DNA of 63,175 bases, counting the filler, from Sphacelaria rigidula (lineage: Eukaryota), in assembly GCA_964200075.2 (NCBI GenBank). It is 11 parts of 11 records of this genome, joined end to end, with 100 filler letters (N's around TTAATTAATTAA, not from the genome) between each part and the next. Parts side by side here need not be neighbours in the genome. Positions count along the whole stretch, not along the records: positions 17,260 to 22,911 come from CAXNAA020025539.1; 10 more parts are not named here. One strand, 5' to 3'. The position numbers were made by a program, and so were the translations under genes. The notes beneath the pieces are model-generated. The model had not been told where the DNA came from. It worked only from the letters and a program-made list of their open reading frames with translations, and did no database searches. Every line of letters begins with the position of its first letter. The first letter of the stretch is position 1. Positions 5,654 to 52,363 of the stretch are shown here, piece by piece.

Positions 5654-5753
5654 NNNNNNNNNNNNNNNNNNNNNNNNNNNNNNNNNNNNNNNNNNNNTTA
5701 ATTAATTAANNNNNNNNNNNNNNNNNNNNNNNNNNNNNNNNNNNNNNNNNNNN
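5654..5753. other. Artificial contig spacer N44-TTAATTAATTAA-N44. Identical spacers at 11407-11506, 17160-17259, 22912-23011, 28664-28763, 34416-34515, 40168-40267, 45920-46019, 51672-51771 and 57424-57523
   Basis: Ten identical 100-nt spacers carrying stops in all six frames; the intervening segments are 5653 bp (x3) and 5652 bp (x8). Confidence 0.98.
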
Positions 5754-8750
5754 AAGCCCTGGCTCCGACGACTCGAAGGTGTTTGAGATCCGGTTCTGTC
5801 CCCTTCAGCATCTTATGAGGCGACTGCATGTCAAGCGCCGAATGCGGTGATCTGTTTGCAAGATAGGCCGCTGTGAACATCAATTCCCCGCAGAGAAAAG
5901 TCGGCAAACCACTGTCAGCAAGCATGCACCGGACCGTGGCTGCAAGCGTCCTTTCTACGCGTTCTGACAGGCTGACTTGTTGTGGTGTATTGGTGCTTGC
6001 AAACTCTAGCAGTATGCCTGTCTGTCGGCAGTACGACTTGAACCCGTTGCCAATGAACTCACCGCCTTTGTCTGCCCTTAGTTGTTCGACCCGAACACCG
6101 CCAGGAATGACCATTGACTGTACGTGGGACTGGAATGCATCAAGAGGGCCGTACTTGGTTTTTTGGAGGTAAATCTCTGTCGATCTGGTATACTCTCATC
6201 GGAGATCTTGCAGACATACTTGAAGGCTCCCAGCGCCTCCGGCATGATCGGTCTAATCGATTATACTTACGCTCCAGAATCTGCCTGGATACAGGGGAGA
6301 TGGATATCAAGATTGGATCATTACATACAGGAAAAGTACGAATAGGAGACTAGCCTGTTATTTGAGGTATACCCGATGTGGCACTTGCAGTACAAATCTA
6401 CTGGGGGCACACGCCTTTTCGCGTGCCGAAAATATGGGATTATGACATGTCATGTTTGTATGAGCGTTTTCCCAAGGAATGACTACCCCACTTCGTTCAG
6501 TGGTTTTTCGGCCAGGTGTGTTTTCAGTGTGTGTGTGTGAGTGGGCAAATATGGGTGAATTAATTACATAAATTATACCTGGTCTCAACTGGCCATGGCA
6601 GACCTACAACTTCCCGCGACAATGCACCCGGTGCATGAGGCTTTCTATTACGGTCCCATCAAATCTGTCATGACTAGTTGAAAAGCGCGTTGCACTTTGT
6701 TGTTGGCTGTCTTCGGGTGGGCCAGTTGATGGCTTTTCCCAACAGCACAAATATCACAGTCCGGAACGGCTCCACCGAAATCCACCTCGTTGATTCCGAC
6801 GTTTTTGAGAAGATTCAAACGATTGCTGTGCGAGTGTCCCATCCTCCAATGCCACAGCGTGGCGGCGTCTGCAGCTTGCATAGCCGGCCCAGATGCGTCG
6901 TTGCCGCTGCTTAGTTCCAGAGAGAAGAAATACAGGTCGCTCTCCAGTTCCTGGAGTGGAACGGTGAAGTTGTTTGTCTCGAGTCTTGGGTTGTTCATTT
7001 CGAAAACTCCATTCCGTGTCGCTTATTTGACGGAGAACAAGTTCCGCCCCAAGCCAGGCACGATCAAACACGAAATCGGAACCAGGCGTTTGACCCCTTC
7101 GCCGTCTTGGATGTGCCCGCGGAGCAGTCCTTCACCAATGCCTGCCAGTTGGTGCCCCCCTGCGGTGGTGATCGTACGCGAGGCCGCCAGTTCTTGGTAG
7201 TTGTGGAGTTTATACCGTAGCCCCGGGATGAGGATATCGTCGAAGTAATGTCCCGACGCACTACTGTCTACCATGACACTGACATGGCTATTGCTACCCT
7301 CAGTCCACTTGTCAAGAGCGGATCCTGCCGCGAGAGCCGTCCCATCATCAACATCGGTGACTCCGTCAAAGGTTTCAGCGGTGTCGTCGAGGTTCGACGT
7401 AGCCCAGGGGTATAATGAGTTCCCGAACATCACCCAGACGTGGTGGACTACGGCTATTACGGCCAGCGCGCGCACTAGTGGGGAAAGTGTATCCCTGATT
7501 CCCCGCAGTAGGTTGCGAGCTCTGCGCCAGAACCCCGGACCCCCGGCCTCCCCTCCGCCGGTCCCTTCGAAGGCGCCGAAGAGGCCGCTGCTGTCAAAAG
7601 AAGCAACGGGTTTATTCGCTGGAGCGAAAGGCCAAAGGTTGTCCGCTTGGAGATGGTTCGCTTTGGGCGCTTCTAGGGCGTTAAAGGAGATGGCGGGAGG
7701 GTGCTCCCCCGTACCGGTGGCTGGTGGATACCTTGACCATTGTGCGAAATTGGCTGTCTGCCGGTTGCGCTGTTGCAAGGAACGGCACTCTTCTTCGCTG
7801 AGGGTTGTTGACCTGTGGAAAGAGCACCACTTGCCTACAATCCCATTGTTTCCACCGTCCTGACCGTCTCCCCCCGTCAGTGCTCGGGTCGCACTTCGGG
7901 TAGGGCAATTTCTCCTAACGTGACCTTGCTTTCCGTAGTGGTGGTATGTTACTTGATTTCTTTTGCTGCCATCATTCCGTCCACTAGCCTGCATAGCAAC
8001 CCCGCGGCCTGCGACCGAGTTGGTGGCGTCCGGTCGTGAAAGGTAGTCAGCTTACATGGTGCTGACCATGTATCTGAGGTCCGACAAATTAAAATCGCGC
8101 CTCTCACAGCTAGCAATACGACCCTATCGTACTCGGCAGGTAAGGCTCGAAGGATAAGGTCCTCATATCGTTCGTCAGGCACGGACTGCCCCATTTCCTC
8201 CAGGCAGTCACGGTAGCCATCCATGAGAAACAAAAAAAATCCGGATCATCCCCTGACTGCATCATCGTAGTGTGGAGTTTATCATGAATTCACTGCGTGC
8301 CTCTTTTGTGTTGCCGTCATATTTTTCTTGCAGCGCTGCCCACGCTGCTTGGCCATTGCCAACCCCGTCCTCCTGGGATTTCCCCATGAAGCGTCTCACG
8401 GTATTATTCGCTGATTTTTCGGTGGTGATAAATAAGATGCTGGACAGGTCATTGTTTGCGCGATTCCAAGCCAGTGAAGGTGCCGTAAAACAGGTTGACG
8501 GTTCATCACCAATTACGATGCGTGCGGGTCTCTGCCACCCCTGCAGAATTTCTGCGGCCGTACTATGGTGGAGGGAGAGGATCACCCGTAGTTTGTCTTG
8601 GTAGTCTCGGAAACTAGCCTTGTCTCTGCCATCAAATTTTGTACACAACTTAAGTACCGCGCGAATACTCTCATTGTCCGCCATGATAATCCTCCTCGTC
8701 GCTTTGCTCCAACGTAACGAGTATAGTATGACGTGTTCCGATACCTCCAC
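5754..8750 (-). mobile_element. Decayed Ty1/copia LTR retrotransposon (gag, Zn knuckle, protease, GAG-pre-integrase, integrase core), cut off by the contig end
   Basis: gag at 8262-8750 and 7949-8233; degenerate knuckle ...GKQGHVRRNC and protease-like VDSSASGHY...LGRNLFSVK in 7023-7994; LWHWRMGH...CDICAVGK...TDLMGP in 6648-6998; integrase RADKGGEF...NTPQQ..LSER...TAAYLANRSP in 5754-6114; multiple frameshifts. Confidence 0.93.
6254..6650. mobile_element. 397-bp insertion in the copia integrase (solo-LTR-like) with a 5-bp TSD
   Basis: CGGTC at 6249-6253 and 6651-6655; termini TAATCGA...TCTATTA; removing the insert and one TSD copy restores DLMGP-IMPEALGAFKYVCKISDE. Confidence 0.8.
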
Positions 8751-9041: not shown

Positions 9042-9289
9042 GACACTTTCTACGATAGCCCCCCCCAAAAACCACCTAAAAGTGTCACGAAAAAATGGCC
9101 ATACAGCGCCTTATGTAAGGGTTCAGGCTGTGCATGAAGCGGCTCATATTGGCGACATCGGCTAGAACGAACCCAAGCGTCGGAATTCCCAGCTTGTCGT
9201 TGTGCTCGGCTTTTCCCATTTCGATTCATGTGAAGACTTTGCCTCCCAAAACCATGCACATTTGGGGGGGGGCTATCGTAGAAAGTGTC
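9042..9289. mobile_element. MITE, 248 bp, ~27-bp TIR (GACACTTTCTACGATAGCCCCCCCCAAA), 4-bp TSD CGCT
   Basis: Inverted termini at 9042-9069 and 9261-9289; CGCT at 9038-9041 and 9290-9293; second copy at 51554-51671. Confidence 0.88.
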
Positions 9290-10108
9290 CGCTGTTGTCG
9301 TCTCCTCAAAGAATAGATCACACGCCCTGCTCGGTTCAGGTTGTGGTACCCTGCTGTAGCGCCAGTCGAGAGTAGATGCGTGTCGTCACAGTTGCAGAGC
9401 TACTCCTATTCACCTGCGGTTGTCCCGCTTTTGAAAAAGTTATCACTTCGTACAGCAGCGATATCTCCGTACTGCGATGATGCCAGGTGCGCACAAAGTA
9501 AGTGCCGTCCTCAATCGTAGCGCAACGCACTGTTGTAATGCCAGACACACACACTGTGCCGTCTTACTTTGACTCAACTCACGTTGTTTTCCAGCAAAGA
9601 TCTGTCATTTTGCTGCTGCCCTTCCTTCCTTCTAAGGTCCAACGTCCGCTCCGTCAGCACCAACACGAATCGAGGCTCAATAAACCTGTTGGAGGATTCA
9701 CTCGGAACCCCTTTGTTGTGGTCGCTAGAGTTGGCGCAATGGCGGTTACGCCAAGCAAGCAGACAGGCTGCTTCGGAGTGTAGATAAGAGGTCGTTTTCA
9801 AGGTGCCGCTTGTGGGCAAGACAATACAAACACCCACCGGGGTAAACGGTCAAAGAGAAGAGTACTTCATGTACAACAGCTGCTATCCCACATCATACGC
9901 CCCCACAACAGACCAAACCTTCGTGACCGGTACCTGCGATCCCGACACTACATATATATAGTCAATGCCATACGAAGCGTTGAAGAGTAAAGCTCCACAG
10001 CCTCATTTTCTGACACCAATAATTATACCTGGAATCGGGCAGAACAATAACCAATTTGCGAGCAGCTTCTTCTGCTGCTGTTCAACTCCCACATACTGTA
10101 CCGTATCA

Positions 10109-11247: not shown

Positions 11248-11406
11248 GGGCGGGGGGTGGGGGCGGCGGGGGCACTCAATATCGTGCATGCCATAGTCAT
11301 CAGAACATTGACCTCGCATCCCTACGAAGCTGGGACGGAGCACGCCGGGTTTTCGCCGGACCAGGCTCGCACTCCGTCATCAAGCATGAAGCGCCGTGGT
11401 GTGCTC
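11248..11406 (-). mobile_element. Poly(C)-ended SINE-like element (3' part), cut off by the contig end
   Basis: G-tract followed by cactcaatatcgtgcatgcc...attgacctcgcatccc...gggacggagcacgccgggttttc; matches 16490-16785 and 32196-32495. Confidence 0.8.
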
Positions 11407-16196: not shown

Positions 16197-16785
16197 GGGC
16201 GGGGGGGGGCGTACTGATTTGTTGAATGCGTTGATCGTTTAACCGTTCACCACGCATCTCTTTCGAGACGTACCAGAGTCTCTCGACCATTAACCTCGCG
16301 TCCCTGCTACGCCGCGACGGAGCACGCCGGGTTTTCGCCGAACCAGACTCGCAATCACCAAGCAGAGAGCGCCATGACGTGTTTGGCGAGTCTCATGAAG
16401 GGTGAGCTGCATCCTGCCAATATTGTTCGGCATGAAGCGTACTAATTATCCTGCACATGGATGACAACAGAAGAGGGTGTAAAGGGGGGTGTACTCATGA
16501 TATTGCATGCCGTAGCCGTAAGACCATTGACCTTGCATGTCCCCAATGCCGGGATGGAGCACGCCGGGTTTTTGCCGGACTAACTCGCAGTCACCAAGCG
16601 CGAAGCATCATGACGTGTTCGGCGCATCGCATGAGGGGTGACCTGCATTCTGCTCAGATTGTTCGGCCCGAAACCCACTAACTATCCTGCATATGGATGA
16701 TAGCCTCGAATGAAGTGCTTCTTTTTCTGGTATCGCCACTTCCAGGGACAGCCACGGGTTACACAGCCTTATGGGCGTCTCACCA
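16197..16785 (-). mobile_element. Cluster of three same-orientation poly(C)-family insertions: LINE-type tail ~16197-16275, partial SINE ~16285-16470, near full-length SINE 16484-16785
   Basis: The first and third begin with a G-tract plus gtact(c/g)a; the two SINE copies are homologous to each other and to 32196-32495. Confidence 0.8.
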
Positions 16786-17003
16786 AATGGAGTGGGGGAG
16801 GCTACAAGTAACACACAAGCATTATTGGGCTAGTCGGAGAAGAACTCCCGAAACGTCGTACTTACATCACCCGCGGTGGTGCTTGGTTGTCCGACTCTCC
16901 CGTGTCCGTTGGGAACGACAATAACGAAGAGACGATGAAAATTACGGTCGTCCTCGTTTGGGATCATCAAGCATGCGCGGCCGCATAGATCCCCCCCCCC
17001 CCC

Positions 17004-17120
17004 TACATCTAATATTAGGAGTAAGAACGGTGCTCCGTCTCGTAAGGGATGCGTGGTCAATGGTCAAACGACTAAGGCAAGCAACAAATGAGTACACCCC
17101 CCCCCCCCCCCCCCCCCCCC
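17004..17120 (+). mobile_element. 5'-truncated LINE 3' end with poly(C), flanked by poly(C) on both sides
   Basis: C13 at 16991-17003, then ...gggatgcgtggtcaatggtcaaacgactaaggcaagcaacaaaTGAgtaca, then C24 at 17097-17120; nearly identical to 52280-52363. Confidence 0.85.
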
Positions 17121-17659
17121 ACCCAACACCCCCCCACCGCCCCCCCCGCACCCCCTCTCNNNNNNNNNNNNNNNNNNNNNNNNNNNNNNNNNNNNNNNNN
17201 NNNTTAATTAATTAANNNNNNNNNNNNNNNNNNNNNNNNNNNNNNNNNNNNNNNNNNNNTCCTTCCAGTAGCACTTGAACGCTGCCCGACCAGCGCCTTT
17301 CTAGACGGAGCACCGCGACCCAGGGAGAGGGGGGGGGGGGGGCAGAGCGGGTGCAAAAGAGGGAATACAGGTTGAACATATTTGAAATGCTCAAGTATGC
17401 TTGCAGGGCTACCAGGCATCAACATCAATGCGGAGTCAAGAGCAGTACTTGTGAACACTTGAAAATGAAACATTTCAACGCACTTCCACGAAAAATTCTG
17501 CCAAAGCTAGTTTGCATAAATATGCACAAGCGCCGCGAGTTGTCTCTCTACCGTATCCTGTTAATAGTCATGTTCAAAGACATGAGACGCTTCAACAAAA
17601 ACACCAGGTACACCACACAGAAAAAAAAAAAACATGCACGAGAAGTCCGTCTTCCTCAC

Positions 17660-17741
17660 CGTCTCTGGAACTGGCGGCGCTCGAAGGGTTCTCCAAGTAC
17701 TTCATCTGCTTCTGCAAGTCGGCCGTCAGCTTTCGACGTTT
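17660..17741 (-). CDS. Sds3/BRMS1-like gene, visible exon 6: KRRKLTADLQKQMKYLENPSSAASSRD
   Basis: Acceptor ttcacag, donor gtgagg; phase-0 start is compatible with the previous exon. Confidence 0.72.
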
Positions 17742-17910
17742 CTGTGAAGCCAAGGAACGGAACAAAACAAAACAAAACAAGACAAAACAAGACAAAAAAT
17801 AAAATAAAATGTCATCACTCGAAAAAGGACGGGAAGCAAGAAAACCCGCGACGCAGAAAACAAACAAGAAACAAGAAACGTTGCATTGATTGAATAAAAT
17901 ATGCTATAGA

Positions 17911-17946
<36 letters not shown>

Positions 17947-18255
17947 TCACCAAGGGAAACCAACCACGGGATCTGTCCATTCCTAATCTGGCCCTCGGGC
18001 TTGCTTTCGAATGGCGGTGTTTGTTTTTGTTGGCGGAATCCGCTGTTGCTGTTGCTGATGCTGTTGTCACGCTATGCACCACCGAGTCCCCCACCTTTCG
18101 ACCGTTGCACAACTCTTTTTCCATTCCATTGACACTTTCATTTTTAGATTTGGAACGAGGGCACCGGCACCGCCTGCCCCCGCCCCCTCCCACCCAGATA
18201 TGAGAAAAATTCATCGTCACTATTGCGTGTTTCGTACAACAGTAGACAACGTCAC

Positions 18256-18330
18256 CTGTTCCATCGCCTCTTCGTGGGCTTTCTCCGCCTCCTTGATTGC
18301 CTCATCCATCAGCATATTCGCCATGTCGCG
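18256..18330 (-). CDS. Sds3/BRMS1-like gene, visible exon 5: RDMANMLMDEAIKEAEKAHEEAMEQ
   Basis: Acceptor tttcag, donor gtgacg; 75 nt, phase 0-0; coiled-coil composition. Confidence 0.75.
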
Positions 18331-18852
18331 CTGAAACACCAAACACAACACACGGCAAAATACGAGAGAACACACACGTCACCATTCCGAAAGCAACGCA
18401 GAACGTACAAACGACAGGAGGGAAGGGGGCAACGTCAGCATACAACATACTAGTCCTCCATATCCTCGACAGTACACGGCCAATAGTTGCAACAGACAAG
18501 AAATGTACCTCATCAAGTATAGCCCTACTGCAACGACTACAGTTGCAGTAGACTTAAATATATCTAGTACATTGTTGTCTGCAGCAACCTTTCATCGTAC
18601 TTTGTCCAGGGTGTTTGACCCTCATATCGACACGACACCCAGCGGCTATCTGTCGAAACGGCAGCATCCTTACTCCGTGGAGCAATCGCCACACACGCAC
18701 AGTCGTGTGCATAATTCAACCCTCGACCGCGGATTACCTCGTCTTCTCCCGCTACATCTTTAGTATATACTCGAATATTCGCAAAGCAAAACGCCTCAAA
18801 TCCATGGGCAGCCAACGAATGAGTTGGGAGAGATGGGGGGACGCGGGGGGGG

Positions 18853-18997
18853 TGTACTCATGATCATGCATGCCATAGTCATAAGACCATTGACCTCGCA
18901 TCCCTGCAATGCCGGGACGGAGTACGCCGGGTTTTCATTTGTTGCTTGCCTTAGTCGTTCGACCGATGACCACGCATCCCTTTCGAATCGGAGCACC
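18853..18997 (-). mobile_element. Chimeric poly(C)-family retroposon (LINE tail fused to SINE 3' part) with a 20-bp TSD, intronic
   Basis: TSD gagttggg(a/t)gagatgggggg at 18821-18840 and 18998-19017; G8 tail at 18845-18852; junction at 18935-18936. Confidence 0.85.
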
Positions 18998-19401
18998 GAG
19001 TTGGGTGAGATGGGGGGGAAGGTGAACTGAACGACTCCTCGAGATTTCTAGACCTGCCAAGTCTACATGAGGACTACCATCCAGCATCATCAGCCTGGCA
19101 CTGCCCCCACGAGCAGCCGTCACAACAGACTGCACGAGCGCCAGTGCATATACCCTAGGGTGGCGATTCCTTTTCTATTGTGGACAAAAACACAGCCCAA
19201 ATGCACTACAGAGAATAACAACACAAAGTGACCCGTGTGAAAACCCCACCCCGCGCAGCGAGTTCCCGTCAAAAATACGGATTTTGGAGCTATAACTCTT
19301 TAGTGAGCTCAATCTATGAGCTCCTGCGTTTCAACACCAACTGATACCACCAATGAAAGCAGACGCCCCAGAGAATCACAAAAAAATAAAATAAAACTCG
19401 C

Positions 19402-19498
19402 CTTGTGCTGATGACAACGTTCGATATCGCTCACGCGCAGCTCATGTTCCCGCTGCGCCACTGTCAAACTTGCGACCATCCACGGGTGGGTTCCCGCC
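19402..19498 (-). CDS. Sds3/BRMS1-like gene, visible exon 4: (R)AGTHPWMVASLTVAQREHELRVSDIERCHQHK
   Basis: Polypyrimidine tract plus gaacag acceptor; GC donor (AAG/gcgagt); 97 nt, phase 2-0; GTHP motif typical of Sds3-like proteins. Confidence 0.7.
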
Positions 19499-19969
19499 CT
19501 GTTCACAAGCGAATGCGCGCACAGAAAAAAAAAAAGACGCATGATCACCGAGTATTCCATAGTCAACGGTTCAACACAAGTTGTTCTCATAAACATTTTC
19601 AACATCTGTGGTTTCTCCCGCTTTTCCTGCAAGATTGCAGAGGTTGAATTTCCTGGGCAAAAAAGAGACACTGACGAAAGTTTAGATGAAATGGACATGG
19701 GGGGGGCGGTTGGTTAGCAGGAGCGATGGCGAAAATCAAAGATTTATTCAGTCAATGGGCGTGGATCACCACTTTTCCGACTTGTTCGGTCGAGGGAGAA
19801 CGGTGCCCTACCATCATGCACTCTTCTGCTTTGCGTGCCCGCGTGTGTCTATCGTATATGTGATTTTCATGCCACGGTACATGAATGTATACAGTACCCG
19901 CATGCATAGTCACAATTTTACCGTTGAAGCGAATCACCCCCTACATGTACACTGTTTCGCAATATTGCA

Positions 19970-20135
19970 CACCTTGGACAATATATGGTCAATAGATGCA
20001 ATAGACGAGAAACGTACTACATGAAGTATAGGCCTATTGCGCCTATTGTGGGCCGGCAATAGTTGCAATAGGCCTATACTTTATGCAGTACACTTTTCGT
20101 CTATTGCATCTTTTGACCATATATTGTCCAGGGTG
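19970..20135. mobile_element. Hairpin (foldback) MITE with ~70-bp arms; degenerate relative at ~18460-18614
   Basis: caccttggacaatatatggtcaa.agatgcaatagacga...tataggcctattgc is mirrored by gcaataggcctata...tcgtctattgcatct.ttgaccatatattgtccagggtg. Confidence 0.8.
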
Positions 20136-20169
20136 TGCAATGTTGCAACGGCAACAATGATGGCATCCA

Positions 20170-20399
20170 GGGCCGAAGCTCACAAGAGTAGCGGCGCGTG
20201 CACTGCGTCAATGTGACGGCAGATTCTCGCGGGGACACCCCCCACACTGCCTTGAGCAAAACTTTCTCAGCGCTCGAGTCGCCTACCCCACATGACTGCA
20301 GTGAGGCGGTCTAGCCGCGCCTCCGGGTAATCGGGACACGAACCCGCTCGCGGGGTGACTTTTGGCTCAGGTTTCTCCCTTCCTTCAAGGAAAAAAAAA
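20170..20399 (+). mobile_element. tRNA-derived SINE family 2 (~230 bp, poly(A) tail)
   Basis: Homologous to 31198-31432 (-) and 34010-34242 (+); all three share a start and end in ccttccttcaa plus an A-tract. Confidence 0.75.
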
Positions 20400-20623
20400 C
20401 GCAAACAAGGTTACATGTATACTGCTACTGGTCGTAGCTTTCATACACGAAGAACGCATGACGCGTGATATATGCGTGGCAATGATCTTCTTGGATGTAG
20501 TGTTCTCTCTTTACCTACAATGACGACTACCCCCTCCGCCCCCCCCCCCCCCCCCGCCCAAAGCCTCGCTGTTAAGCCTACAACTTGGGGGTACGCGCGG
20601 CAAAATGGTTCAAAATACTTTAC

Positions 20624-20688
20624 CTGATGGTACCCGCCTCGGCGTGGAGGTCTCTGATCCAGCGGCCAGCAGCAGCCTTTCGGATTTC
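20624..20688 (-). CDS. Sds3/BRMS1-like gene, visible exon 3: EIRKAAAGRWIRDLHAEAGTI(R)
   Basis: Acceptor ctgcag, donor gtaaag; 65 nt, phase 0-2. Confidence 0.72.
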
Positions 20689-21276
20689 CTGCAGCGAGGA
20701 ACCACCAGAGAATAAAATAAAGGAACCAAACACGGGACAGAAACGAAACGAAGCGAAGCGAAACGTGTTACATGTATCAAACATATAAACACGGTACTTT
20801 ATTTTTTACTAGCATCCGAGAAGCACCCATGAGCAATAAAAAAAACAGGCACACGCGCATATTGACTATCTACGTGCGATACTGCGCTGAACTGTACCGT
20901 ACCGTAGGCGATATAACGCCCCACAGGCACAACCGTGGCAGCCTACTCATCAATGTGCCGAATCAATTATCCATGTACTGCCGGACCACTTCCGAAGGAC
21001 TTCATGTTGCTCTCACTGCGGTTTTCGGCCATTCGATAAAACGTGTTTACATGGCCGAACAGGGCAGAGGGAGTGAAGGCTGTTACACAAAGTATAATAT
21101 AGTTCAGTATCGTAGATAACAACAACAACCATTTCGTAGGTGTAAACATACATACAACATGATGCAATCATGCCGGACACCAGAGGGTGGCAAACCCCCC
21201 ACCCACCCACCCACCCAGCCAAAAACAAAACCGTTGCGCACCACAAGAACACATGACGCAGACAACAGTAACGCAC

Positions 21277-21561
21277 CTCATTGAGCACGCGCGACACATC
21301 AACCCCGCTCTCATCGCGGCCCTCCCCGATTCCATCTACCTCCGCCAATACCGTCGGATCCTTCAAGCGCGGATCTTCTCGCGGAGTCGGTCGGTATTCG
21401 TCCCCGTAGAGCAGATCAAACTCATCCCACTCCTTCTCCTCTTCAGGTGCCGATTGCTTCGGCCAGGTCAACGAAAACTGGGCGCGGATGTTGCTGCTGT
21501 TGTTGCTGCCTCGGCCACTGTCCGCCCCGCCAAAGTCGCTACCGCCGCCGCCCTTAGCGTT
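21277..21561 (-). CDS. Sds3/BRMS1-like gene, visible exon 2: NAKGGGG...VSRVLNE
   Basis: Lies within ORF 21013-21588; acceptor ggcag, donor gtgcgt; 285 nt, phase 0-0. Confidence 0.72.
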
Positions 21562-22373
21562 CTGCCATGATCGAGCCAGCAAAAACAACGCGCGGGGGAA
21601 TCAATTTAGTATAGTTCAGTGCAGCGCGTGCAGTGCAGTAGTGCAGTACACGGCACAACAGCAAAAATAATACCACAACGTAAGACGAGAGACAGTCAAC
21701 GTGAGGCGAGAAGGAGGGCGGGAGGGAGTAAACGCTGATTCAAATCCGCGACGATAGCAGCATGTCAGACAGGCACCCCACGCACAGGCGGGAGAAAGAG
21801 GTAAATGGATGGGTGAATTAATCCCTCACCTCAAGACCAACCAAGTACGAACTCGTGCTAGGAAGAACGATCAAGGGTATTGTTTCAATTCAAGTATGAC
21901 GAAACTAAACAATCACATGTAAAAAAAAATGGCGATTGATCGTTGTCTCAGGAACGATAGTCCAGCACAAATGCTGGGGGTCTTACGTGTGCATGAGTGC
22001 ATCTACTCGACGAAACCTTTGACTGCCAACTGTCGATAGATTTGTGCCCACGGTGTGCACACGTGCATACTCTAGCAACCCACAACGCACTGTCTTCTTT
22101 TATGGCGTGTGGTCGTCTTGCATATTACGCTGGCGACAAATTTCTCCAGCATTCAAACATCTGTTCCGAAAGAATAACTGGTTTTGCATGTTGTGTTCGG
22201 TCTTCCATATGTCGTCAGGAAATGCTAAGAAGTGTTCCAAAAAACACCCTGAAATTAATTTTGGAGGAAGAATTAGAGCAAGAAGAGTTTCATCATTTTA
22301 AACTTGAGCACTCTTATATTTTATTTCTCATGTGACGGTGGTGAGCACTTGCCGAATCGATATTTTGACATAC

Positions 22374-22700
22374 CTCGTAGCTTCCGTCATCATATTCTTC
22401 GTCTGCAACTAGGTAGTCCTCAAGGTTCTCCATAACTTCGCTTTTGCGATCGCCACCATGATCAGCAGGACCAACCGCCCCATCTCCATCTCCACCTCCA
22501 CCATCCCGATGTCCATCATGTTCGAACGGGGCCACGTCTCTGGTGATGCCTTTCCGGGGTCCGCCTTCCGCAATGACTGCTGGCTTGCGTCGTCGTAGTT
22601 CGTAGTCTACATCCATGGGGTCATCGTTCTTGTGGAGAGATCCGTTGACTTCATCAGAGCCGTTGGTGTCGACAGACTCGGAGACAGATCCGTTGGAAAT
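22374..22700 (-). CDS. Sds3/BRMS1-like gene, visible exon 1 (acidic, low complexity; upstream exons probably missing)
   Basis: Extends ORF 22314-22616; acceptor gacag, donor gtatgt; 327 nt, phase 0-0. Confidence 0.62.
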
Positions 22701-23501
22701 CTGTCACATGGCCGCATTTTAAGGGTCATCATTGTTGTTGGTCTAGTGTTACGTTGATCTAGAGCCCATTTTTGAGAGAGATAGATGAGGAGGTGCGGAT
22801 GTGCTTGTACCTCGATGCCCGGTGGGGGGGGGGGGGGGGGGGGGAGGGCCAGTTTTCATTTGAGACTTCCGACAAAAAAAAAGAAGAGGTGGGAAGGGCG
22901 TCGGGGAGGGANNNNNNNNNNNNNNNNNNNNNNNNNNNNNNNNNNNNNNNNNNNNTTAATTAATTAANNNNNNNNNNNNNNNNNNNNNNNNNNNNNNNNN
23001 NNNNNNNNNNNCGACTACCATCATGGTTACCGGGAAAAACAACGCAAGCGCGCAAAAAAACCCCGGTAACCTGATTGCCTAGCTTACGCAGTGAGTGGCG
23101 TGTTTCACAGCGTCATCGCCAACCGACGGCAACGGGGGGGGGGAGGGGGGGGGCTCAGACATGAAACATACCAGCATCTCCCGAAGACTGGCGACGAAAG
23201 ATCTGTATCATTAGAGGTATAATATCTCAAACTCGAGGGTTCCCGCTACATTTGATAGTAATTCACAGTCAAGTACATACTGGGAACATCGAGGTTGAGA
23301 CACCTCGAATAAAAGGGGCGTTTTTGTTGTTGAGGAAATGTGTGAGGGATCTCCAGCTCGTCCGTTGCTTGCTTCGTCTATTTTTGTATGGGTTTCGAAG
23401 GGGCTACATTTCCGGTTACGATGTTTTCCGTACACGTGCTGCTGTGCTGTACCGTACGATACGTGCTCCTGCTAAGTGTTGTGCACGTACGCGGACACAC
23501 A

Positions 23502-31432: not shown

Positions 31433-32133
31433 TAGCTCTCCGGTATACTGTACTCTACTGCACTCTTCGCTGCTGTATGACGATCAAGCCCCATGTTAAG
31501 GTATTGCTGCCCTGGCTTCGACTTTGCAGTGGCGTTTGCAGGTGACATCGTTATCTACAGGTAGGCATATCTGTAATTACTCTCCTGTGCGATACGGTGC
31601 GTGGGGGTGCTGTACTGTGCTTCACCACTGTACTGTGCTGTTGTAGTACTCACAGTGAGCATTCGGGTACCTGTGGTATCAACTTTTCAAGACTCATTTG
31701 AGTGTGCGTGGTTGATTTTGATCACGTACGTCACCCTCTACATACACACTAACGACCAGCCAGCAGAGCACGCCTTTGGTCGTTGATGACGGTGGAATCC
31801 GAAAGGGCTCATGAACTGACGATGCGCAATTCCCAATTTCCATCCGTCAGGCCCAAGCCCAATCGTGTTCGAATTATGTACTTCCATGTTCAAAATTCTA
31901 GCGGATTGGAAAAAAGATGAACCTTGGAAGGAACGCACTGCAGCACCTCCCTCGCAGCATAGTTGACGCTCCCCTTACTTCTACTCATCAATCAGTGCGA
32001 ACAATGTATTCGAGGTACATACGTATGTTCGTTACCTCAGGCGGCACGGCTTGTTCATCGGAGGGGACGGGTGGGGGGGGGGGGGGGGGGCGACTCCTGA
32101 CTCAGGATGGCGTCGGGCGAAGATGNNNNNNNN

Positions 32134-32495
32134 GTGGGGGGGGGCGGGGGGGGGGGGGGGGGGGGGGGGGGGGGTGGGGGGGGGGGGGGGGGGGGCACTC
32201 ATCATCATGCATGCCGTCGTCGTAAGACCATTGACCTCGCATTCCTACAATGCCGGGACGGAGCACGCCGGGTTTCGTCGGACCAGGCTCACAATCAATC
32301 ACCAAGGGCGAAGCGCCGTGATGTGCTCGGCGAGTCGCATGAAGGGTGAGCTGCATCCTGCGAAGATTGTTTGACCAGAAGCATACTGTCTAGCTTGAAT
32401 ATGGATGACAGCCTCGAATGAGTTGCTTTATGCTCTGGATTCGCCACTTCCAGAGACAGCCACGGGTTACACACTACCTCATGGGTGTCTCACCA
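32134..32495 (-). mobile_element. Poly(C)-ended SINE-like element, near full length (~300 bp) plus a long poly(C) tract
   Basis: G-tract 32134-32195, then a body collinear with 16490-16785; both copies end at gtctcacca. Confidence 0.85.
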
Positions 32496-33033
32496 TTGAA
32501 AAATAGTGGGGGTGGCGATGACTTCGGGATAGTGGTTTCCTGCGTTCGGACAATACCAACCAAGGACACGCCAATGCCACGCATATGCCGCATGCCATGA
32601 TCCTCCGCTCATAAGCCACGGCCAATACAGCACATCGGCCCTCACAGAACGGCAAAAGCAGTAGTAGTTATCGCGTCGGCATAACACGGTAGCTACGCAT
32701 GTACCGTATGCATGGAATAAAATAAAGGAGGAAATAATCAACTTCTCTCCTGGATCAACCATGACAATAAAAGGCCGCTCCGTGCCTCCTGGCCAAGCTT
32801 CCTAGGTTCGTGCAGCTCGTCGTAAAAACCGCATGTACAGGTCATATTCCAAATACCCACGGGACTGTCATACCCCACAAAACTCGCGGGGCTGCCAGCG
32901 GACGAAACAAAACTCGGTGACATACGTGCGAGGCGTTCGAATTTTCACAATGGCGAGCCCGAGAAAATTAATCGACGTGCTACTAATCATGGGAACAACA
33001 CTCTCACGCTTGCCGCACTATCGGCAAGAGTCG

Positions 33034-34242: not shown

Positions 34243-37200
34243 GGTGTCGTTGGCGTTTCACTTCTGTACAAAAAAAAGTGAGCGTCTAGTCTAGAGAAGG
34301 GTATACTTCCTCACTTTTGCCTTGAACCGGTACATATTTCAATTCTTGTGTACATTTCACGGTTAGGACTAATCATCACGACTCAAAATCACCAAATTCA
34401 CGATTTCTTCGGCCTNNNNNNNNNNNNNNNNNNNNNNNNNNNNNNNNNNNNNNNNNNNNTTAATTAATTAANNNNNNNNNNNNNNNNNNNNNNNNNNNNN
34501 NNNNNNNNNNNNNNNCAACCCCTCGAACTCTAAATTCATAGCCCCCTCCCAAAGGTCAGCATGTGCAGAGGCGCGGGCTTCGGCAATCGTTGTGGGCTCT
34601 GGCTCTTTGGCATGTTCGGCAGGTATCTCGTTCGGCTTCTTCTTCAATGCTCTCTGCTCAGCAATCAGCGCACGCAAGGTTTGGTCCCCGGTGATGGGCC
34701 CAAGCGAAGTTAGCAAACCGATCCCTTCTTGCTGGTTCAGCGCCCGCGTTTGTGCTCGCGTCCTGCCCTCCCTGCATTCTTCATCGTCATGTGGACCCAC
34801 GTTGTACGCCTCGAGCTGTATCAGCGCGTTGCGTGTTTGCACTGGCACATCATTTCCGTCAGGAATGGCGTCGCTACTGTTGCTGGAGGACGATGCAGGT
34901 GTTGATGATGTGCTGCTGCGAGATGATGGTGACGTAGACGCTGATCGGTCGTCGAGAGATGGCGAGGGCGATGTCGATGACGAATCGCCGCTGGATGCTG
35001 ATGCTGATGCTAATGGAGCGTCCAGCGGTAGTGGATATTCCGCCGCCTCCGCTGGTTATTGACTGTCCTCCACCCCCTGGGCCGGTAGCCGCACGTGGGG
35101 AATCCCTCTTCCTGTCAGCGGCCACACTTCTGCCAACTCATTTTTGCAGGGTTCATCCCCCCCTCCCGATTCCGCTGCCGTCAGTGTTTGCGGGGGCGGG
35201 AGAGACTGCGGCGATGCTTCCGACGTGATGTCTCGGGTCTCGACAACTTGCCCTCCCCGCGTTAGCACACGGTAAGAGTCGCGCGGATACTCGCGCGAAG
35301 GCCCGAGATAGAAGCAACTCTGCCCCTTAGGAAGCAGCTTGGATGGCCGCTTCCATCGGCAGTAGGCTGACCTGAGAAAGGGATGTGGACTGGCCGGCAT
35401 AGCCGTCCCGAACCACATTTCGTTCGGTGATTTGTTGTCCGGGTTGGAGGTCGAAGCAGTGTAGTTGAGCTGTTCACATGCCGAATGCATTGCCTCGGCC
35501 CACAGCATTTCGGTCTTCGGCAGCTGAACATGACCGAACAATGTCTTCGCCTGAATCCTTGCCACCATTCCCGTCGCTTCAATGATTCCGAAAGCGCGCT
35601 CTGCAACGCCGTTGAACTGGGGACTATTGGCGGGGGTAAATTCCTGCTTAATCAACAGATTATCACATACTGTTCTGAAATTATCCCCGAAAAACTCTCC
35701 TCCGTTGTCAGATCTTACTATCTGTACTATTGAAGGAAATCCGTCCGCTCGCACATCTGCGAGGAAACGGTTGAAAGCCTGATCAGAATCAGCCTTACGT
35801 TTCAAGAAATACAGCCAGGATTCTCTGCTGGAATCGTCCTTGATGATCATTGGGTAGTGTTTTCCCCCGTACAGATGCAATTTCTTTTCTGCCTCCTAGG
35901 TCTACGAAAACGCTACCGAGCTTGGTTTGAGCTCTATTTTTAGTCTGATGAGGTATACCTTTTCTGTATCCCTTTACCATCGAGCACGCAGTACATGCAT
36001 GCATTTCCCCTTCAAGTGTAGTATCTAAATGTCTAGCAGTATGCCTCAGCAGCTGCTCATGAGCATAACCATAGATACAGGGAAACAGGTTAATATCCAT
36101 CATTTTTACAGGGGAGGGCTCGAGGGCATCATTGCTGGTAATGCGGAAGCATCAAATTGCTCCCCAACTCGATATGCTGTGGCCACCAACATACCGTCCT
36201 GGTTCGCAAACGTTACACGTCCGTTGAATGCAGGCATTATACCATCTGGACCTTCCAACCGGTCCCAACTTTCCCCATCAAATTCCGCACGGGGTGACAA
36301 CAGGTTGTGTCCTAGATTAGGAGCATAAAGTACGTTTTTCAACTCTGCTACATGCTCGTTCTCCTCTGTCATAAACACTACTGTCACATTACCCTTCAGC
36401 GAAACGTCACACGTCACGCCGCCTATGCCACCAACACTAGAAGATACTTGTGTAAGATCTCTCATGTATCGCAATGAATCTGTCAGATGATAGGGAGCAT
36501 CAGTAACACCGTACCACTCTTCACAGAAGGGCCTAGAAACAGCAGCAGCCAACGATTTCAAGCGTGAAAGCTCACCACTGTCTTTCTTCGACTCTGCTTC
36601 GCCTTCCTGATCCGGAGCCCTAATTACGCGAGCTTTGCAGTCCCGTATCCTGTGTGGAAGACCACACCGAAAGCACTCCAGTGGCTTCTTGCCTACGTTT
36701 TCAGCTTTCGCGGAACTACTCCTATCAGTATCAGGTTTTGGCTTCCTAGCTTTACCCTTATTTCCACCCCCCCTGGCTTTCGCAACTAGATCTTGCCCTG
36801 TCGATTTGGCAATTTTGCCCTGAACAGAGAAGCTTAGGTGGGCATTTCGCACGTGGCGTTCTATCGCTTCTCGATCACGCATTACAACGCGGAAAATGAA
36901 TGCTCATAACACTTCTGACCATTTCGTATTCACTCGTTAGTCCACGCAACATGAGGGAACAAACAGTTCTCTCGTCCTTCTCTACCCCTAGCATAAGTAG
37001 AACGCTCAAAACTTCCGCGAGCTGTGAAAAAAATACGTGCGGATCTTCCCCTTGTTGCATCTTCAACCCGTTGAGCTTGTGCTCATAGGGGTTGATATCT
37101 GCGTCGGTAAGGGGCAAAAAGTGATCATTTATTACACGCCACGCTTTACTGGGGGATTTCGCGTTGCTGATCATTGCTCTTACACTTTTGCATGTTATAC

Positions 37201-37554
37201 AATCGTCCAGATGCCACCAAGCAGCCTGTGCTCGCTTGATTTGGCTTACCGTAAAGCCTTGCTCAACCAAGGGTGCTAAACCTATTCCAATACCAGCAAC
37301 TGAAATATCGTCGGTAGTGATGTACGCTTCATGCAATCCACATTGCCTGGCATATATAGAAAGACGCTCTTTCCATTATGGGAATTCAGTCGCAGTCCCA
37401 TCGAATTTCAAACCAGCAGGTAATCGAATACCTCTAATTCCGAAAGACGACACGCCACCTGTGCTTGCATTATCACCACCACCGAAACCCGATCCAAACA
37501 CCTCTACATTTTTCCACCATTCGGCAGTACCTACCGCTGGCGGGCGTGAAAAGT

Positions 37555-40267: not shown

Positions 40268-43200
40268 CTGCTCTCTATTGCTTTGCCACAGGGGCAATTC
40301 TGTCGATCTACTTCCTCCTTTCGACGACCGATGGTGGAAGGGAGGAAGAAGACGACGAGCACGAAGAGTCGTCCTCTGTCAGCAACGGCGACAAATGAGG
40401 GGGCGCCCCAGGTATTTTCAACCTGGCAAACCTGCTAGAGAAGGAGTTGGCAGCCATCGAGCGCCACCTCGGAGACCAACTGTGGGCGACTGGAGAAATC
40501 TGGCACCGGAACCGCGCTCGGAGGTCGTGGTCACTCGAGGTACTGTTGGACACCGGGGCAGATGGGGGCAATTACATGTCTGGGTTTCTGTGGCGTTGCC
40601 TCATAAAAGCAGAAACAGTACAGGCCAAGCTAGACACGAACAACGCTGGCGCTCTTCACGCCGCCGATCCCTCGCAGAGCAAGGTACCTCCGATTTCTAT
40701 AGTTGGATCAGTCGTGATACACCTCTCGTTCGCTCAAGATGATCGCGTTCGTAAAGTGGCAGTCGTGGTGGTAGAGGGCCTACCTTACTGGCTCATTTTG
40801 GGGGCCGAGGGTTTTAGGGCAAATCGCAGCAGTATGAAATTCAAAGCAACAGGAGGGTTTCGCCCTACCCCGTCCGCACCGCGGATTCAGGTTTTGACCA
40901 ATGATAGCCCCCGATATACCGCCGAGTATATACTGTTCGCCCTGGACCCGCTCACGAAAGCCCGTTCGTTAGTCACGCCTTCCCCCGCGCCCTGTGAGTT
41001 CCCCACTTACGGTGACGTTGCTTAGGAAGACGACGGCACGAGGGAGTGGAACAGAGCCTGGCCGAGCGTTCCGTCTCCATCGATGGGTTTGTGAGTATGG
41101 CGGGGGAAACGGTGACTATGGGACCCCAATCACAGGACAGGCAGCTTGTTCTGATTCTGCCCTTGGCTAAATACGATCTGGACGGTGAAGCGTTGGTAGG
41201 GATAGCCAAACGAGTATTGTGATAGGACCAGGATTTCCGGTTTACTGAAAGTTGATAAACCGAGGTAAAGATATGGCCGAAGTGGAAACCTCCGGGACAA
41301 TCGCGCGCATGATACCCCTCAACGTGCGCAATCCCGCTCGCTTTCACTCACTTTTCGACGACACGGCGTCCAAAGTAGACCAACCTACCTTGCCCACACC
41401 CCCTTCGTGCCCAGAAAGTGACCAACTACCCTCAGGACCCCACGAGGTCCGAGTATCGGACGTAAACATGGGACAACTTGGGGAAGCAGAGAAAGTGGAA
41501 CTTGTGCGCCTCATAATGGATTTCGTGGAAGCAGGGTGCCAGCCTGCATCAATCGTACGCTAGAATTGTCATTGATTGACGAGGCTAGCACACCCTTTGC
41601 CGCGAAACAACGCCGTTTCTCGTCGGAAGAACGCCGAATAATGCGACCCTCGACCTTCCCCTGGGCCGTGCAATGTCTTCTTGTCAAAAACAAAGATTGT
41701 ACCTTGCGCTTGTGCATCGACTGGCGTGCTCTGAACAAGTTTTTAGCGCCTGATAGCGGTGGACTGAGTGACATGCAGTCAATATTTGATGGTCTCAGAT
41801 GCAAGAAATATTTCACGCAACTAGACCTAGCCTCAGGATTCCACCAAATTGAGATTGCTGAGAAAGACCGCCACAGAACGGCATTCAGAGATGCAGACGG
41901 CCTATTCTTCGAGTTCACCAGGGCGGGTCTCGGACTGACAATACTCCCGGCGGCGTTCACTCGTGGAGTGAAATCAACGATAGGCAACCTGAGTGGCGTA
42001 CATAGCTAGACATCCTCATAGCCAGCCCCTCGTGGGACGAGCACTTGGCTCTACTTACCATTATCTTGCAACGTATGTCGACTGCAGGATTCTCGGTGAC
42101 CTTCGCCAAGTGCAGCTTTGCAGCACCGTCCCAGGCGTTCCTTGGCATGTTGATCGATAGTACAGGCATACAACTGACCCCGTTCAGACTCACCTCAGTG
42201 GCTAAGATGCCACGTCCACGCACTGTTGAGGAACTACGACGTTTCTCGGACTCACCGGGTACCTCAGACAGTTAGTCGAGAAGTACAGCATAATAGCCGC
42301 CCGTTGACCAACATTCTTCGCCACAAAGAATTTGCCTTACGTCGTGCACGAGAGTTGACCATTCCGTGGGGTGATGACCAGGAAGCAGCGTCCCGGACAC
42401 TCGAGTCTTCTCTCGCACCACCAACGATACTCGCTCTCCCCGACTTTAACAGCACGTTCGAATTGCAGACGAATGCTAGCACAGTGGGTGCGGGAGTCAC
42501 TCTCTTACAGCCAGTGAGGAACGAGTCTCGTTTCATCGCATTTGCGAGTCATAGGTTTTCACGTACAGACTCGCGCCGAGTACACACGGAGAGGGAACGT
42601 ATAGCCGTAATATGGGGGGTCCAGCACTTCAGACCGTACCTAGCGGGAAGGGAGTTTAGATTAGTCAACGACTGTTCCGCGCTGACATAGTTGTTTCGTA
42701 GTCGTGATCTGTATCCCAAGCTACACAGGTGGGCGCTCCGACTCATGGAGTACGACATGGAACTTCGATGGCGTCAGTGAACCCGACACGTGTTACCTGA
42801 CGCTATGTCCCGTCTCCCGCATCAACAGGAACCAGGAGACGATGTAGACGACTCATTTCCCGACGATTTCACCTTTGGCACACCCTCGGAAGCCGCAAGG
42901 TCCCACGGATCACAACTGGACGAGGAATGGTTGTCGGAATTCTCAGCCAATGGTTTCAAGAGAGAGCACATAGATGTAGCTCAGACGAGATATCCAGGCA
43001 CCTCGCGAACACTCTCTTTCACTGAATGCGCGTCAATAATAGACAAACCACCCCGTAGTTCCCCCAGAATTCGCCGGCCATCCGTGCATTCGCAGTTCCC
43101 TGGCTCTGCTCGCATACGTACCGTGCCCACAGATGCTCAGATGAATCTTTAGCCGCCGGTAGCTTTCACGCCTATTGATATTCCAACGATGGAACCTACC

Positions 43201-49759: not shown

Positions 49760-51300
49760 CATCAAACCCGTCTGTGCCTCGCAAACAAGTTGATCGAGCT
49801 AGGCTTCGTCAAAATATCGGCATGCTGCCATTTTGAATCTACACGCGCGACTCTGATCTCAAATGAAGTGATACTTCATATCGATGTGCTTACTCCTTTC
49901 AAAAGTGAAGGGGTTTTCGGCCAAAGCCTTGACTCCCTCGTTGTCCTCGTACAAGACTATACCGTGGTCCTCCCCACATCCCGACACAGTCTGAGGTCGC
50001 AAAAACGTCAACACTAACTTGACAAATAGTCCCTATTTTTCCCCCTCGGTCATTACGACATACTTCGCCTTCGTGGTTGATGGAGCCACACAGTGTTGTG
50101 TGCGACCCGTTGCCGAAACTACCACACCACCATACATCACAGCTACCCCCGAGATTGAACACCTGTATGGTTCCTCCTTAGCGTAGTTGACGTCATAGTA
50201 AACTGAAATCCTGTCGTGATCTCTCTTGAAAGTGGGTCCAAATTTCTTCGTCCAATTTAGATACTGCATTACCTTTACTACTACTTCCTAGTGCCTCTCG
50301 CACGGGTCATGTGGCTGACAAGCGAGGGCTCGTACTGTATTTGCTACGTCTGGTCTAGTGACTGTAGCCAGCCACATCAGCCCCCCCACTACATTACGGT
50401 ATGAACGATTCACTACTGAATGATGTCTTTGCCCGTTGTCGGTCCCAACTTGAAAGGAACAGAGAGAGGGATTTCTGAGTATCCCCTCACCTCAAAACGC
50501 TTTAGGAGCGTGTCCTTGAACGTAGTTTGCGTCACCGATAGCGTGCCTCTATCCCAATCTCTGTCCACCGCACATCCCATGTACCATGTGACCTCTTCGA
50601 GATTGGTAGTGGGAAACTTGTCAGTCAGAACTTTGACCACCTTTCGCACATTTCCCTCAGCGCCACTGATCAGAATGTCATCCACGTGGACGACAAAAAT
50701 TACACGCACGTCTCCTGCATCCTCCATCTTAAAAACACAAGGGTCAGCCTCACACTGCACCATCCCGACACCCTCCAATAAAGTTTGACACAGAAGACGT
50801 GACCACTGCCTGCCTGTTTGCTTGATCCCATAAATGATTTTTTCGAGCTTAGCGGTCATGTCTGTCAAACCGTAGCAACCTTCAGGCAGCCTCATGTACA
50901 CGTCAGTATCCATCTTCGCATGAACCAAAGCCTGTGTTACGTCGAAATGGTACAACGACCACTCTTCCTGAACTGCCACCGCCATGACCAGCTTAATGGA
51001 GGCCATGGGGGGCGTGGCCGCGAAAGTCTCGAGTTAGTCGACCGCGGAACGTTGTCCGAATCCTCGCGCTACCCGCCTAGCCTTTGCCTTCGTTACGGTA
51101 CCATCCGCGTCGTTTTCCAATTGAAAACCCATTTTGCTGAGAGAACATTCTTCTGGTATTGTACCACTCGGAAATGCTCTAACCTTTTAGTCCCCCAATT
51201 CTGCCTGTATCGCGCCAAGCCATGCCTTGTGGAACTCTGATGTCGCTACGCCATCCATATTGGTGGGTGCTGCCTCTACTTCGCTTACATGCCACCCGAT
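49760..51300 (-). mobile_element. Decayed Ty1/copia RT and RNase H fragment
   Basis: ORF 50413-51006 has HFDVTQA, IYGIKQTGRQW, CEADPCVF and VVHVDDIL; RNase H remnants (APSTTKAKY, and HADILTK near 49800-49825); KARLVARG and FGQ upstream. Confidence 0.9.
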
Positions 51301-51553
51301 GAACGCAAACTAAATCCGGGCTGTCCTACTGTGTCTTCCTCAGCAACAAAACCGAAAAACTCGTTCTAGATCGAGACGATTGCGTCTTGTCCTACCACCT
51401 GTCCTGCTGCCGCGGTGATCATCTCCACGGCTGAGAATTTGTCTTCGGCCATCCCCACCAGCGCCACCTCTGCTTCCTTTCTGCTCTTCTCCCCTTCGCT
51501 AGCCACCAGCGTCCCGCCGTGTGTGTGCGCGCCGACCCCGTGGCTTCACGTGT

Positions 51554-51671: not shown

Positions 51672-52030
51672 NNNNNNNNNNNNNNNNNNNNNNNNNNNNN
51701 NNNNNNNNNNNNNNNTTAATTAATTAANNNNNNNNNNNNNNNNNNNNNNNNNNNNNNNNNNNNNNNNNNNNCACACGTGGAATAAAAGAATGACTCACTT
51801 AAAGGGAATGGTCAAAGCCACTCTCAATCGTATCAAATGCTCTAAATCTCACGAAAACACTGTTATACGCAAACGCTCGCTAAAAACAAAGAACATTGAG
51901 AAAAAATAGAAATATAACACAAACATGATAAACTGAAGAACAAAAAAAAGCAGCAGAAGGAAAGCCAAGGAACGGAGAAGAGCTGGCCAAAATAATATGA
52001 TCGTGACAAAAACAATGTGATCCTCGACGG

Positions 52031-52363
52031 CTATTTTGCAGAATGTGAACTATACAAGGAGGAACGGAACGTGCTAGAGGGGGAAGTGCGGGACGTGAAC
52101 GAAGGTGGCATGAAATCATTCGATGCATTAGACAGCAACGATAAGACAATGGCTATACTAGGAGATGATTGGGGCCACAGACGGCAAAACACGACGGGGA
52201 TAAGATATATATGTAAAATGTTTTTATACAATGTATGGAAGGAACGTAATGGACGCCGCAATGTTGGAAGTGTCTCTAATAAGAGTAGGAACGACGCTCG
52301 GTCTCGAAAGGGATGCGTGGTCAATGGTCAAACGACTAAGGCAAGCAACAAATGAGTACGCCC
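52031..52363 (+). mobile_element. 3' end of a LINE ORF2 (post-RT region), putative autonomous partner of the poly(C) family
   Basis: FAECELYKEERN...ILGD.W...KMFLYNVWKERN...ASNK*; the stop TGA at 52353-52355 is followed directly by gtacgccc. Confidence 0.72.

Follow-up and report, generated by a model that had tools for sequence, protein, structure and literature searches.

A 157-base insert in Sphacelaria rigidula joins the last bases of a C-tailed LINE to the last bases of a short partner element that depends on it, and one 20-bp target-site duplication, which in element orientation starts with a run of C, encloses both parts. We tentatively read the insert as the product of one target-primed reverse transcription event with a template switch, carried out by the machinery of the C-tailed LINE, a reading that we place somewhat below an even chance. 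The insert is real, but as a by-product of a kind of retrotransposon that is on record from brown algae it is rather ordinary, and on present evidence it is one ambiguous locus and not a new mechanism.

The window, i.e., the whole stretch of DNA analysed here, has 63,175 bases and consists of 11 separate pieces of ~5,652 nt. The pieces are joined by N44-TTAATTAATTAA-N44 spacers, at 5654-5753 and at nine more places about every 5,752 nt, and distances or neighbourhoods across spacers are meaningless within the stretch. The insert sits in the piece at 17260-22911. Evidence from beyond the window came from contigs of public runs, protein searches and papers. The features discussed below are collected in Table 1.

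Table 1. Coordinates of the insert, its parts and related copies, counted along the whole window
Feature	Position	Strand	Remark
Target-site duplication, tail-side copy (3′ in element orientation)	18821..18840	-	G6 end on the plus strand, C6 start in element orientation
4-nt interruption, ACGC on the plus strand (GCGT in element orientation)	18841..18844	-	between the G-run of the duplication and the tail
C8 tail (G8 on the plus strand)	18845..18852	-	direct reading
Partner-element 3′ end, last 84 nt of ~330, ending ...GAGTACA	18853..18936	-	86-90% identity to copies
2-nt overlap, TC on the plus strand (GA in element orientation), common to both parents	18935..18936	-	alignment with canonical copies
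LINE 3′ end, 61 nt (61-63 with the overlap), coding for the last 20 residues and the stop	18937..18997	-	
Target-site duplication, copy at the 5′ end of the insert	18998..19017	-	G7 on the plus strand, then AAGG
Second two-module copy, reverse order: partner body short of its final 17 nt, terminal 61 nt of a LINE-type module, C9	16211..16466	-	
5′-truncated LINE 3′ end (to 17096), C13 ahead, long impure C tail after, cut by the piece end	17004..17159	+	
Full-length ~330-nt partner copy; C tail of >60 nt (32134-32195)	32196..32516	-	same 5′ end as 16491-16802
Decayed LINE 3′ end, CCHC-knuckle neighbourhood, stop 5 nt before the end, C3 tail (52355-52363)	51996..52360	+	

A clean duplication that starts with a C-run

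The two copies of the 20-mer have the coordinates and letters given in a preliminary description of this DNA and agree at 19 of 20 positions, the mismatch being A at 18829 versus T at 19006. A possible 21st duplicated base, the G at 19018, is ambiguous. In element orientation, which is the minus strand, the 5′ copy reads as C7 and 14 specific bases, and the 3′ copy as C6 and the same 14, so that both start with a C-run as had been claimed. The first-strand nick, proposed earlier to lie in a G-run, falls at the 3′ edge of that run (G6-7^AAGG on the plus strand).

With up to 3 mismatches allowed, the 20-mer occurs only at these 2 places in the 63,175 bases, where 0.01 would be expected (100 dinucleotide shuffles). 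The plus strand holds 74 runs of at least 6 G or C. When the 14 bases upstream of G-runs of at least 6 were compared on both strands, 2 of 2,485 pairs agreed at 13 or more of the 14 positions; one was the 20-mer pair of the insert, and the other was pure G. The duplication is no by-product of G-richness, since both the shuffles and the comparison of upstream bases single out this pair.

The insert consists of two element ends joined directly

On the plus strand, the left copy of the duplication, ending in G6, is followed by ACGC, G8, 84 nt of the partner, 61 nt of the LINE and the right copy. These lengths are close to the ~60 nt of LINE and ~85 nt of SINE proposed beforehand, and the 4-nt interruption that had been noted between C-tail and duplication is the ACGC. 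It could belong to the tail, which would then be impure, or consist of the bases that were polymerised first; other copies, too, have tails broken by one or a few bases other than C.

The partner part is 86-90% identical to the copies at 32196-32275, 16491-16572 and 11268-11354, and 97.7% identical over 44 nt to 51588-51631. The LINE part is 90% identical to 17029-17091 and 52296-52355, and its translation, GAPIRKGCVVIGRTTKASNK*, matches the C-termini of the proteins P0002, P0003 and P0004. Whereas the normal LINE end is GTAC(A/G)-Cn, the LINE part stops after ...AAATGA, without the terminal 5 nt (GTACR) and without a tail of its own. The partner part begins with (G)AAAACCCGG, 84 nt from the partner end. 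The alleged 2-nt microhomology between the parts was confirmed against canonical copies; after these two bases, GA in element orientation, the partner adds 82 further nt. Neither a GTACR remnant nor a second C-run lies between the LINE and partner parts.

The locus had also been placed in an intron of an Sds3-like gene. We found nothing to uphold this: none of the 103 ORF pieces of at least 35 aa in 17260-22911 matches the Sds3 family at E ≤ 0.1.

The LINE ends in its own coding sequence

The copies of the first family, at 17004-17096 and 52277-52360, were identified as LINE ends. The ORF at 51996-52352 matches P0001 (340 aa) with 61% identity, and by way of P0001 we reached full-length relatives (1,328-1,360 aa), which have a CPCG...H....C knuckle in addition to the Exo_endo_phos and RVT_1 domains. 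In P0002 (1360 aa) and P0004 (1328 aa), both domains lie in a single ORF that ends with the module-encoded residues. The protein end of the relatives is ...GAPSRKGCVVNGQMTKASNK; the module in the window encodes the same 20 residues, of which one is changed in the copy at 17029 and three in the insert, and then TGA. Only 5 nt separate this stop codon from the C tail, so that the LINE is practically without a 3′ UTR, and its 3′ module is coding. In view of these similarities, the label LINE is sound for this family. The nearest named relatives of the protein are Ectocarpus proteins (64% identity), and the window itself holds only C-terminal pieces of the LINE ORF, at 51996-52352 and 40270-40335. 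The latter piece, on the minus strand, contains a CPCGK knuckle, is 72.7% identical to P0001 over 22 aa and is cut by the start of its piece of the window. A 35-nt string of the LINE module had no matches in viral_contigs or genome_contigs.

At 17261-17342, on the minus strand, C14 and 14 bases are followed by a 19-nt match to the LINE module starting from GGTGCTCC and then by unrelated sequence to the piece end. This may be another truncated or fused fragment; its match and the 5′ end of the insert start at the same GGTGCTCC.

The partner shares the 3′ module

Copies of the second family lie at 32196-32516, 16491-16802 and 11268-11406. The two complete copies have their 5′ end in common, ~330 nt ahead of the tail, and the ~330-nt element has no coding potential. 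Over the last ~70 nt, down to the terminal GAGTAC(A/G), it can be aligned with the end of the LINE. The element had been called a SINE. That label holds for the 3′ end, which is common to the partner LINE over ~70 nt, but not for the head: a search for a pol III head returned no Rfam family and no tRNA (ARAGORN) in the window or in the ~330-nt element. We therefore name it a LINE-dependent non-autonomous element and not a SINE. An Rfam match to NEAT1_2 (E = 0.79) was too weak and was disregarded.

The shared ~70-nt module and the C tails support, independently of the fusion, the earlier proposal of a common machinery, and the inference that both families use one machinery is sound. Probably, the LINE reverse transcriptase also recognises the specific 3′ module, as in a "stringent" LINE/SINE pair. 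The consensus of the shared module folds into a putative hairpin that is conserved, with 15 predicted pairs, none of which shows a compensatory change.

C tails and their use as targets

A profile search (nhmmer) found 10 modules at 8 loci in the window. All 7 module loci with a 3′ end carry C runs (C3, C6, C8, C9, C15, C24+ and C60+), and the tail of the eighth (11268-11406) is an impure C run; over the 8 loci, tail lengths range from 3 to >60, and the tails are often impure, with A, G, AC or GCA interruptions. As for C-rich duplications, the 8 loci gave 1 clean case, the insert (19/20), and 2 imperfect candidates, at the 51588 and 16211 loci. The 16491 locus had no candidate, and the other 4 loci, which run into a piece end or an N gap or have an undefined 5′ end, fell outside the assessment. 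A candidate at the 32196 copy was rejected as unreliable, being a gapped alignment with a score of 11 across the N gap (8 N at 32126-32133).

One of the imperfect candidates frames a 36-nt partner fragment (51588-51623) with TGG(C)TTG(A)G-run, a 15/17 match with one gap; this fragment immediately follows a C9 tail that belongs to another retroposon family. The other is an imperfect 20-mer ending in a G-run (15/20 match) around the copy at 16211-16466, which is ~78% identical to other partner copies. The priming site of that copy is G6^TGTAC, the exact boundary between tail and 3′ end of the neighbouring copy (16467-16490), which indicates that resident tails serve as targets. The base after the nick varies among three loci (A or G, T, C). 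The rule that the nick falls after a G-run, that the duplication starts with a C-run and that tails become targets is reasonably supported, with a clean case only at the insert locus.

A retroposon-like family ending in ...ACACTTTYTACGATAG and C9 was seen at 51545-51579 (plus strand) and 9273-9300 (minus strand), so that a third sequence family seems to carry C tails. At 51571, the tail of this ACACTTTYTACGATAG family is the target of the 36-nt partner fragment.

Module copies and the junction in public runs

The locus is present in 5 of the 7 listed public runs, from 2 studies. We compared contigs from four runs (X1, X2, X3 and X5); X4 was left out as it comes from the same sample as X2. On a 1.3-kb stretch, the four runs gave 9,293-63,665 contigs each, nearly all of them on 18828-19003. 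Summed depth there was 10^6-10^7 versus 5-81 in the flanks; summed depth is not true copy number, and the contrast suggests module copies of the order of 10^5.

Most copies turn canonical at the junction, so that the fused form is not the standard element. Left of 18935, 523, 578, 377 and 153 contigs (X1, X2, X3 and X5, respectively) go on as a G-run and CGTAC, the canonical LINE end and tail; right of 18936, 330, 334, 268 and 108 contigs go on as canonical partner body. Contigs with loose ends at 18845-18848 continue as G-runs of variable length, from hundreds of other copies, and tails of very different lengths occur among the contigs. One 5′ end recurs: in 217 (X1) and 220 (X2) contigs it lies near GGTGCTCC and a G-run follows.

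The junction between insert and unique flank is covered on the left in 4 of 4 runs and on the right in 3 of 4. Over 571 nt of flank, X1 and the window disagree at 4 positions; therefore, the insert predates some divergence among the samples. None of the 15 best-supported of 116 joints skips 18841-19017 or 18841-18936, as an empty or intermediate allele would, and X5 has no cover at 19048-19399; this does not argue that such alleles are absent. Among the contigs listed, none spans 18936|18937 in the exact arrangement of the window, and their ends fall at 18865-18870 on one side and, on the other, at 18937 or 18967; the junction thus rests on the window's own assembly. Head-to-tail joints are many, for example from 18995 to 18845 in 7, 21, 16 and 2 contigs. 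One X3 contig is perfect on 18937-19600 and then has 388 further letters that do not match the window left of 18937. The contig would count against a single event, but since X3 also contains the left junction, at equal depth, we take it for a path that a repeat induced in the assembly graph.

A joint from 18994 to 18935 with 13 letters between, i.e., two LINE modules head-to-tail, had a summed depth of 424 in X1 versus ~36 for unique sequence, so that some module tandems are themselves multicopy. The 20-mer across the junction of the insert had 2 exact matches in metagenome contigs (L001 and L002). They were set aside as chance matches, with prokaryote-looking flanks and no similarity to the insert.

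Origin of the fusion

A single event with a template switch would run as follows. The machinery would be that of the C-tailed LINE, which combines an endonuclease of the apurinic type with a reverse transcriptase and is of the sort annotated as RTE-X in brown algae. It would nick the plus strand, which is the cDNA strand, at the 3′ edge of the G-run; the end of the run in the primer ...GAGATGGGGGG-3′ would pair with the C tail of a partner RNA and prime the cDNA. After 84 nt, the reverse transcriptase would leave the partner RNA and, through the 2-nt overlap, resume on a LINE RNA (or LINE 3′-module RNA) 5 nt from its 3′ end, extending the cDNA by 61 nt and stopping near the 5′ end that recurs at GGTGCTCC. 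A cut of the second strand 20 nt away would then produce the 20-bp duplication that starts with the C-run.

In favour of this course, one typical duplication encloses both parts, and the two families share the ~70-nt 3′ module and the ...GAGTAC(A/G)-Cn end, and we infer that both parts were copied in a single event. The identification of the LINE and the canonical course of most genomic copies at the junction point the same way. The insert is not a plain nesting into a tail, because the LINE part ends 5 nt short, with neither GTACR nor a C-run. The reverse-order copy at 16211-16466 bears on the same point: tail-targeted nesting fails to explain its fusion (16211-16336), as the two modules meet away from any C-run, 17 nt within the partner. 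That copy may have arisen long ago by a template switch, or it may represent a partner lineage of its own. Chimeras from template switching that are bounded by direct repeats are documented for other LINEs (PMC2104539). Against a switch, nicks at the boundary between a resident tail and 3′ end do occur, as G6^TGTAC at the 16211-16466 copy illustrates, and a second insertion is therefore a natural rival at this locus.

The same sequence would also result from two insertions, which leaves the single-event switch unproven. A LINE fragment (~66 nt and a C tail) would have come first and made the duplication, and a partner would later have entered at its G-run^YGTAC, its 84-nt cDNA being rejoined through the TC/GA overlap with a 5-nt deletion and no second duplication. 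Such a history fits only a little less well than the template switch, and we rate it somewhat less likely. The use of resident C tails as targets, seen at the 16211-16466 copy and at the fragment after C9 (51588-51623), speaks for it, as do the abundant head-to-tail joints in the public-run contigs and the statement in PMC12477816 that the Ectocarpus partner "can be present in tandem". Moreover, a nick of this kind would fall at the LINE terminus, and the junction is no more than 5 nt from there. However, two insertions would need an atypical second-strand step, in which the cut falls ~5 nt upstream and not 15-20 nt downstream. In the window's other cases of tail targeting, the resident tail was kept and a duplication made, and here no remnant of GTACR or of a second C-run separates the parts.

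Divergence between the parts gives a further comparison. Departures from the majority sequence number 5 in the 61 positions of the LINE part and 1 in the 84 of the partner part (Fisher test, one-sided p = 0.048, two-sided p = 0.083), which hints that the LINE part may be the older one, as a nested origin predicts. The gap is weak and owes something to subfamily variants: at least one LINE-part variant, the CCG at 18964-18966, recurs in the copy at 16211-16271, and the LINE-part variants may mark a subfamily and not age.

A source that was already fused, either a fused subfamily or a LINE with a nested partner read through, would make the locus an ordinary 5′-truncated copy. Minor fused variants could hide among the ~10^5 module copies, and the reverse-order copy at 16211-16466 (~78% identity) may itself be a propagating variant. 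A 114-nt X2 contig does cross the junction (18887-18986), with 11 mismatches and 9 gap letters; yet it is the only one to do so among the longest contigs listed, its 9 extra letters fit a short tail between two elements, and the main loose ends at 18935/18936 are canonical forms. Missing junction contigs are weak evidence, since contigs break in repeats. On balance, we consider a pre-fused source quite improbable.

That the junction is an assembly artefact of a repeat-rich region is very improbable: among the contigs listed none spans 18870-18967 in the window arrangement, but an overlap of 2 nt between the parents is too short to cause a k-mer mis-join, the two modules do not meet at homologous positions, unique sequence is joined to the insert on either side (left in 4/4 runs, right in 3/4), and the duplication frames the whole insert.

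A broader form of the template-switch reading is that the reverse transcriptase often hops between LINE 3′-module RNA and partner RNAs, in which case fusions would be the routine way for new dependent elements to gain or swap tails. We think this unlikely; the basis offered for it is two fusions, in opposite orders, among eight loci in 63 kb (two-module loci thus making up 2 of the 8 module-bearing loci in the window). If true, this genome would be a natural system for watching SINE tails being born.

Relation to known retrotransposons

In supplementary file 1 of PMC12477816 (Ectocarpus, 2025), entries for RTEX-1_Ec32 read "single EN-RT ORF; (C)n 3′" with "C-rich" TSD, and the entry for RTEX-2_Ec32 reads "(C)n termini/TSD". 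The same table lists RTEX-N1_Ec32 and RTEX-N2_Ec32 as non-autonomous, with unknown heads, the last 60-100 bp common with LINEs, and "C-rich" TSDs. In the main text of that paper, the 600-bp partner is given as the most abundant family, and its SINE status is left open. Like Ectocarpus RTE-X, the Sphacelaria LINE has a single endonuclease-reverse transcriptase ORF, a (C)n terminus, a C-rich duplication and short non-coding partners that share its 3′ end. The Sphacelaria pair matches every feature listed for the Ectocarpus pair, and its putative assignment to RTE-X rests on these matching features and on the Ectocarpus relatives of the protein. The partners differ in length, ~330 nt here versus 607 and 188 bp in the Ectocarpus entries. 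The Ectocarpus text and table entries on these families mention neither a C-tail mechanism nor LINE/partner chimeras (PMC12477816). Our text searches of the literature found no paper describing a poly-C-tailed LINE, the only description being that in the supplementary table of PMC12477816; within the literature searched, the insert is a candidate template switch in a LINE clade for which none is described.

The clean 20-bp duplication fixes the position of the nick and the pairing of primer and tail for a C-tailed LINE. The insert had been described as having the geometry of L1 with C in place of A; this can be followed base by base at the locus, and its novelty falls away, as the arrangement is already recorded for Ectocarpus RTE-X. 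That record is so far only a curator's note ("(C)n", "C-rich TSD"); the geometry seen here mirrors L1 with G:C for T:A.

In L1, the nick falls at TTTT^AA, the poly(A) tail anneals there, and the duplication begins with A's. As in L1, the nick at the insert lies at the edge of a homopolymer complementary to the tail, the duplication starts with the tail base, and 5′ truncation is combined with microhomology at the junction. Unlike in L1, the tail is C and not A, and the base after the nick varies. As polyadenylation cannot make a C tail, the tail must be templated or come from slippage of the reverse transcriptase, and a C-tail system separates the annealing of tail and target from polyadenylation.

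Chimeric retrocopies made by LINE reverse transcriptases are said to include the U6/L1 type in mammals and the WEIRD, Mg-SINE and MGL type in Magnaporthe. The insert resembles such bipartite or tripartite template-switch retrocopies in that two transcripts are fused directly within the frame of one short direct repeat, the 3′ part having the element end at which reverse transcription starts and the 5′ part being joined at or near its own 3′ end. It departs from them in that reverse transcription would start on the dependent element and pass to the 3′ end of the LINE itself, and in that the parents are homologous over the last ~70 nt. A nested origin is also a serious alternative here, unlike for those retrocopies, as the machinery targets tails.

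Other repeats in the window

Most pieces are repeat-rich, with LINE and LTR material, and recognisable host genes are few. Another LINE-like reverse transcriptase ORF lies at 436-2111 on the minus strand (RVT_1, E = 2.7e-18); the part covered by its piece showed no similarity to the C-terminal region of the C-tailed LINE. Fragments of LTR retrotransposons of the Copia type lie at 6651-8051, 35059-37375 and 50416-51033, and a Gypsy-type fragment at 41422-44346; across these fragments, gag, integrase, RVT_2, RT-RNase H and integrase zinc domains were found.
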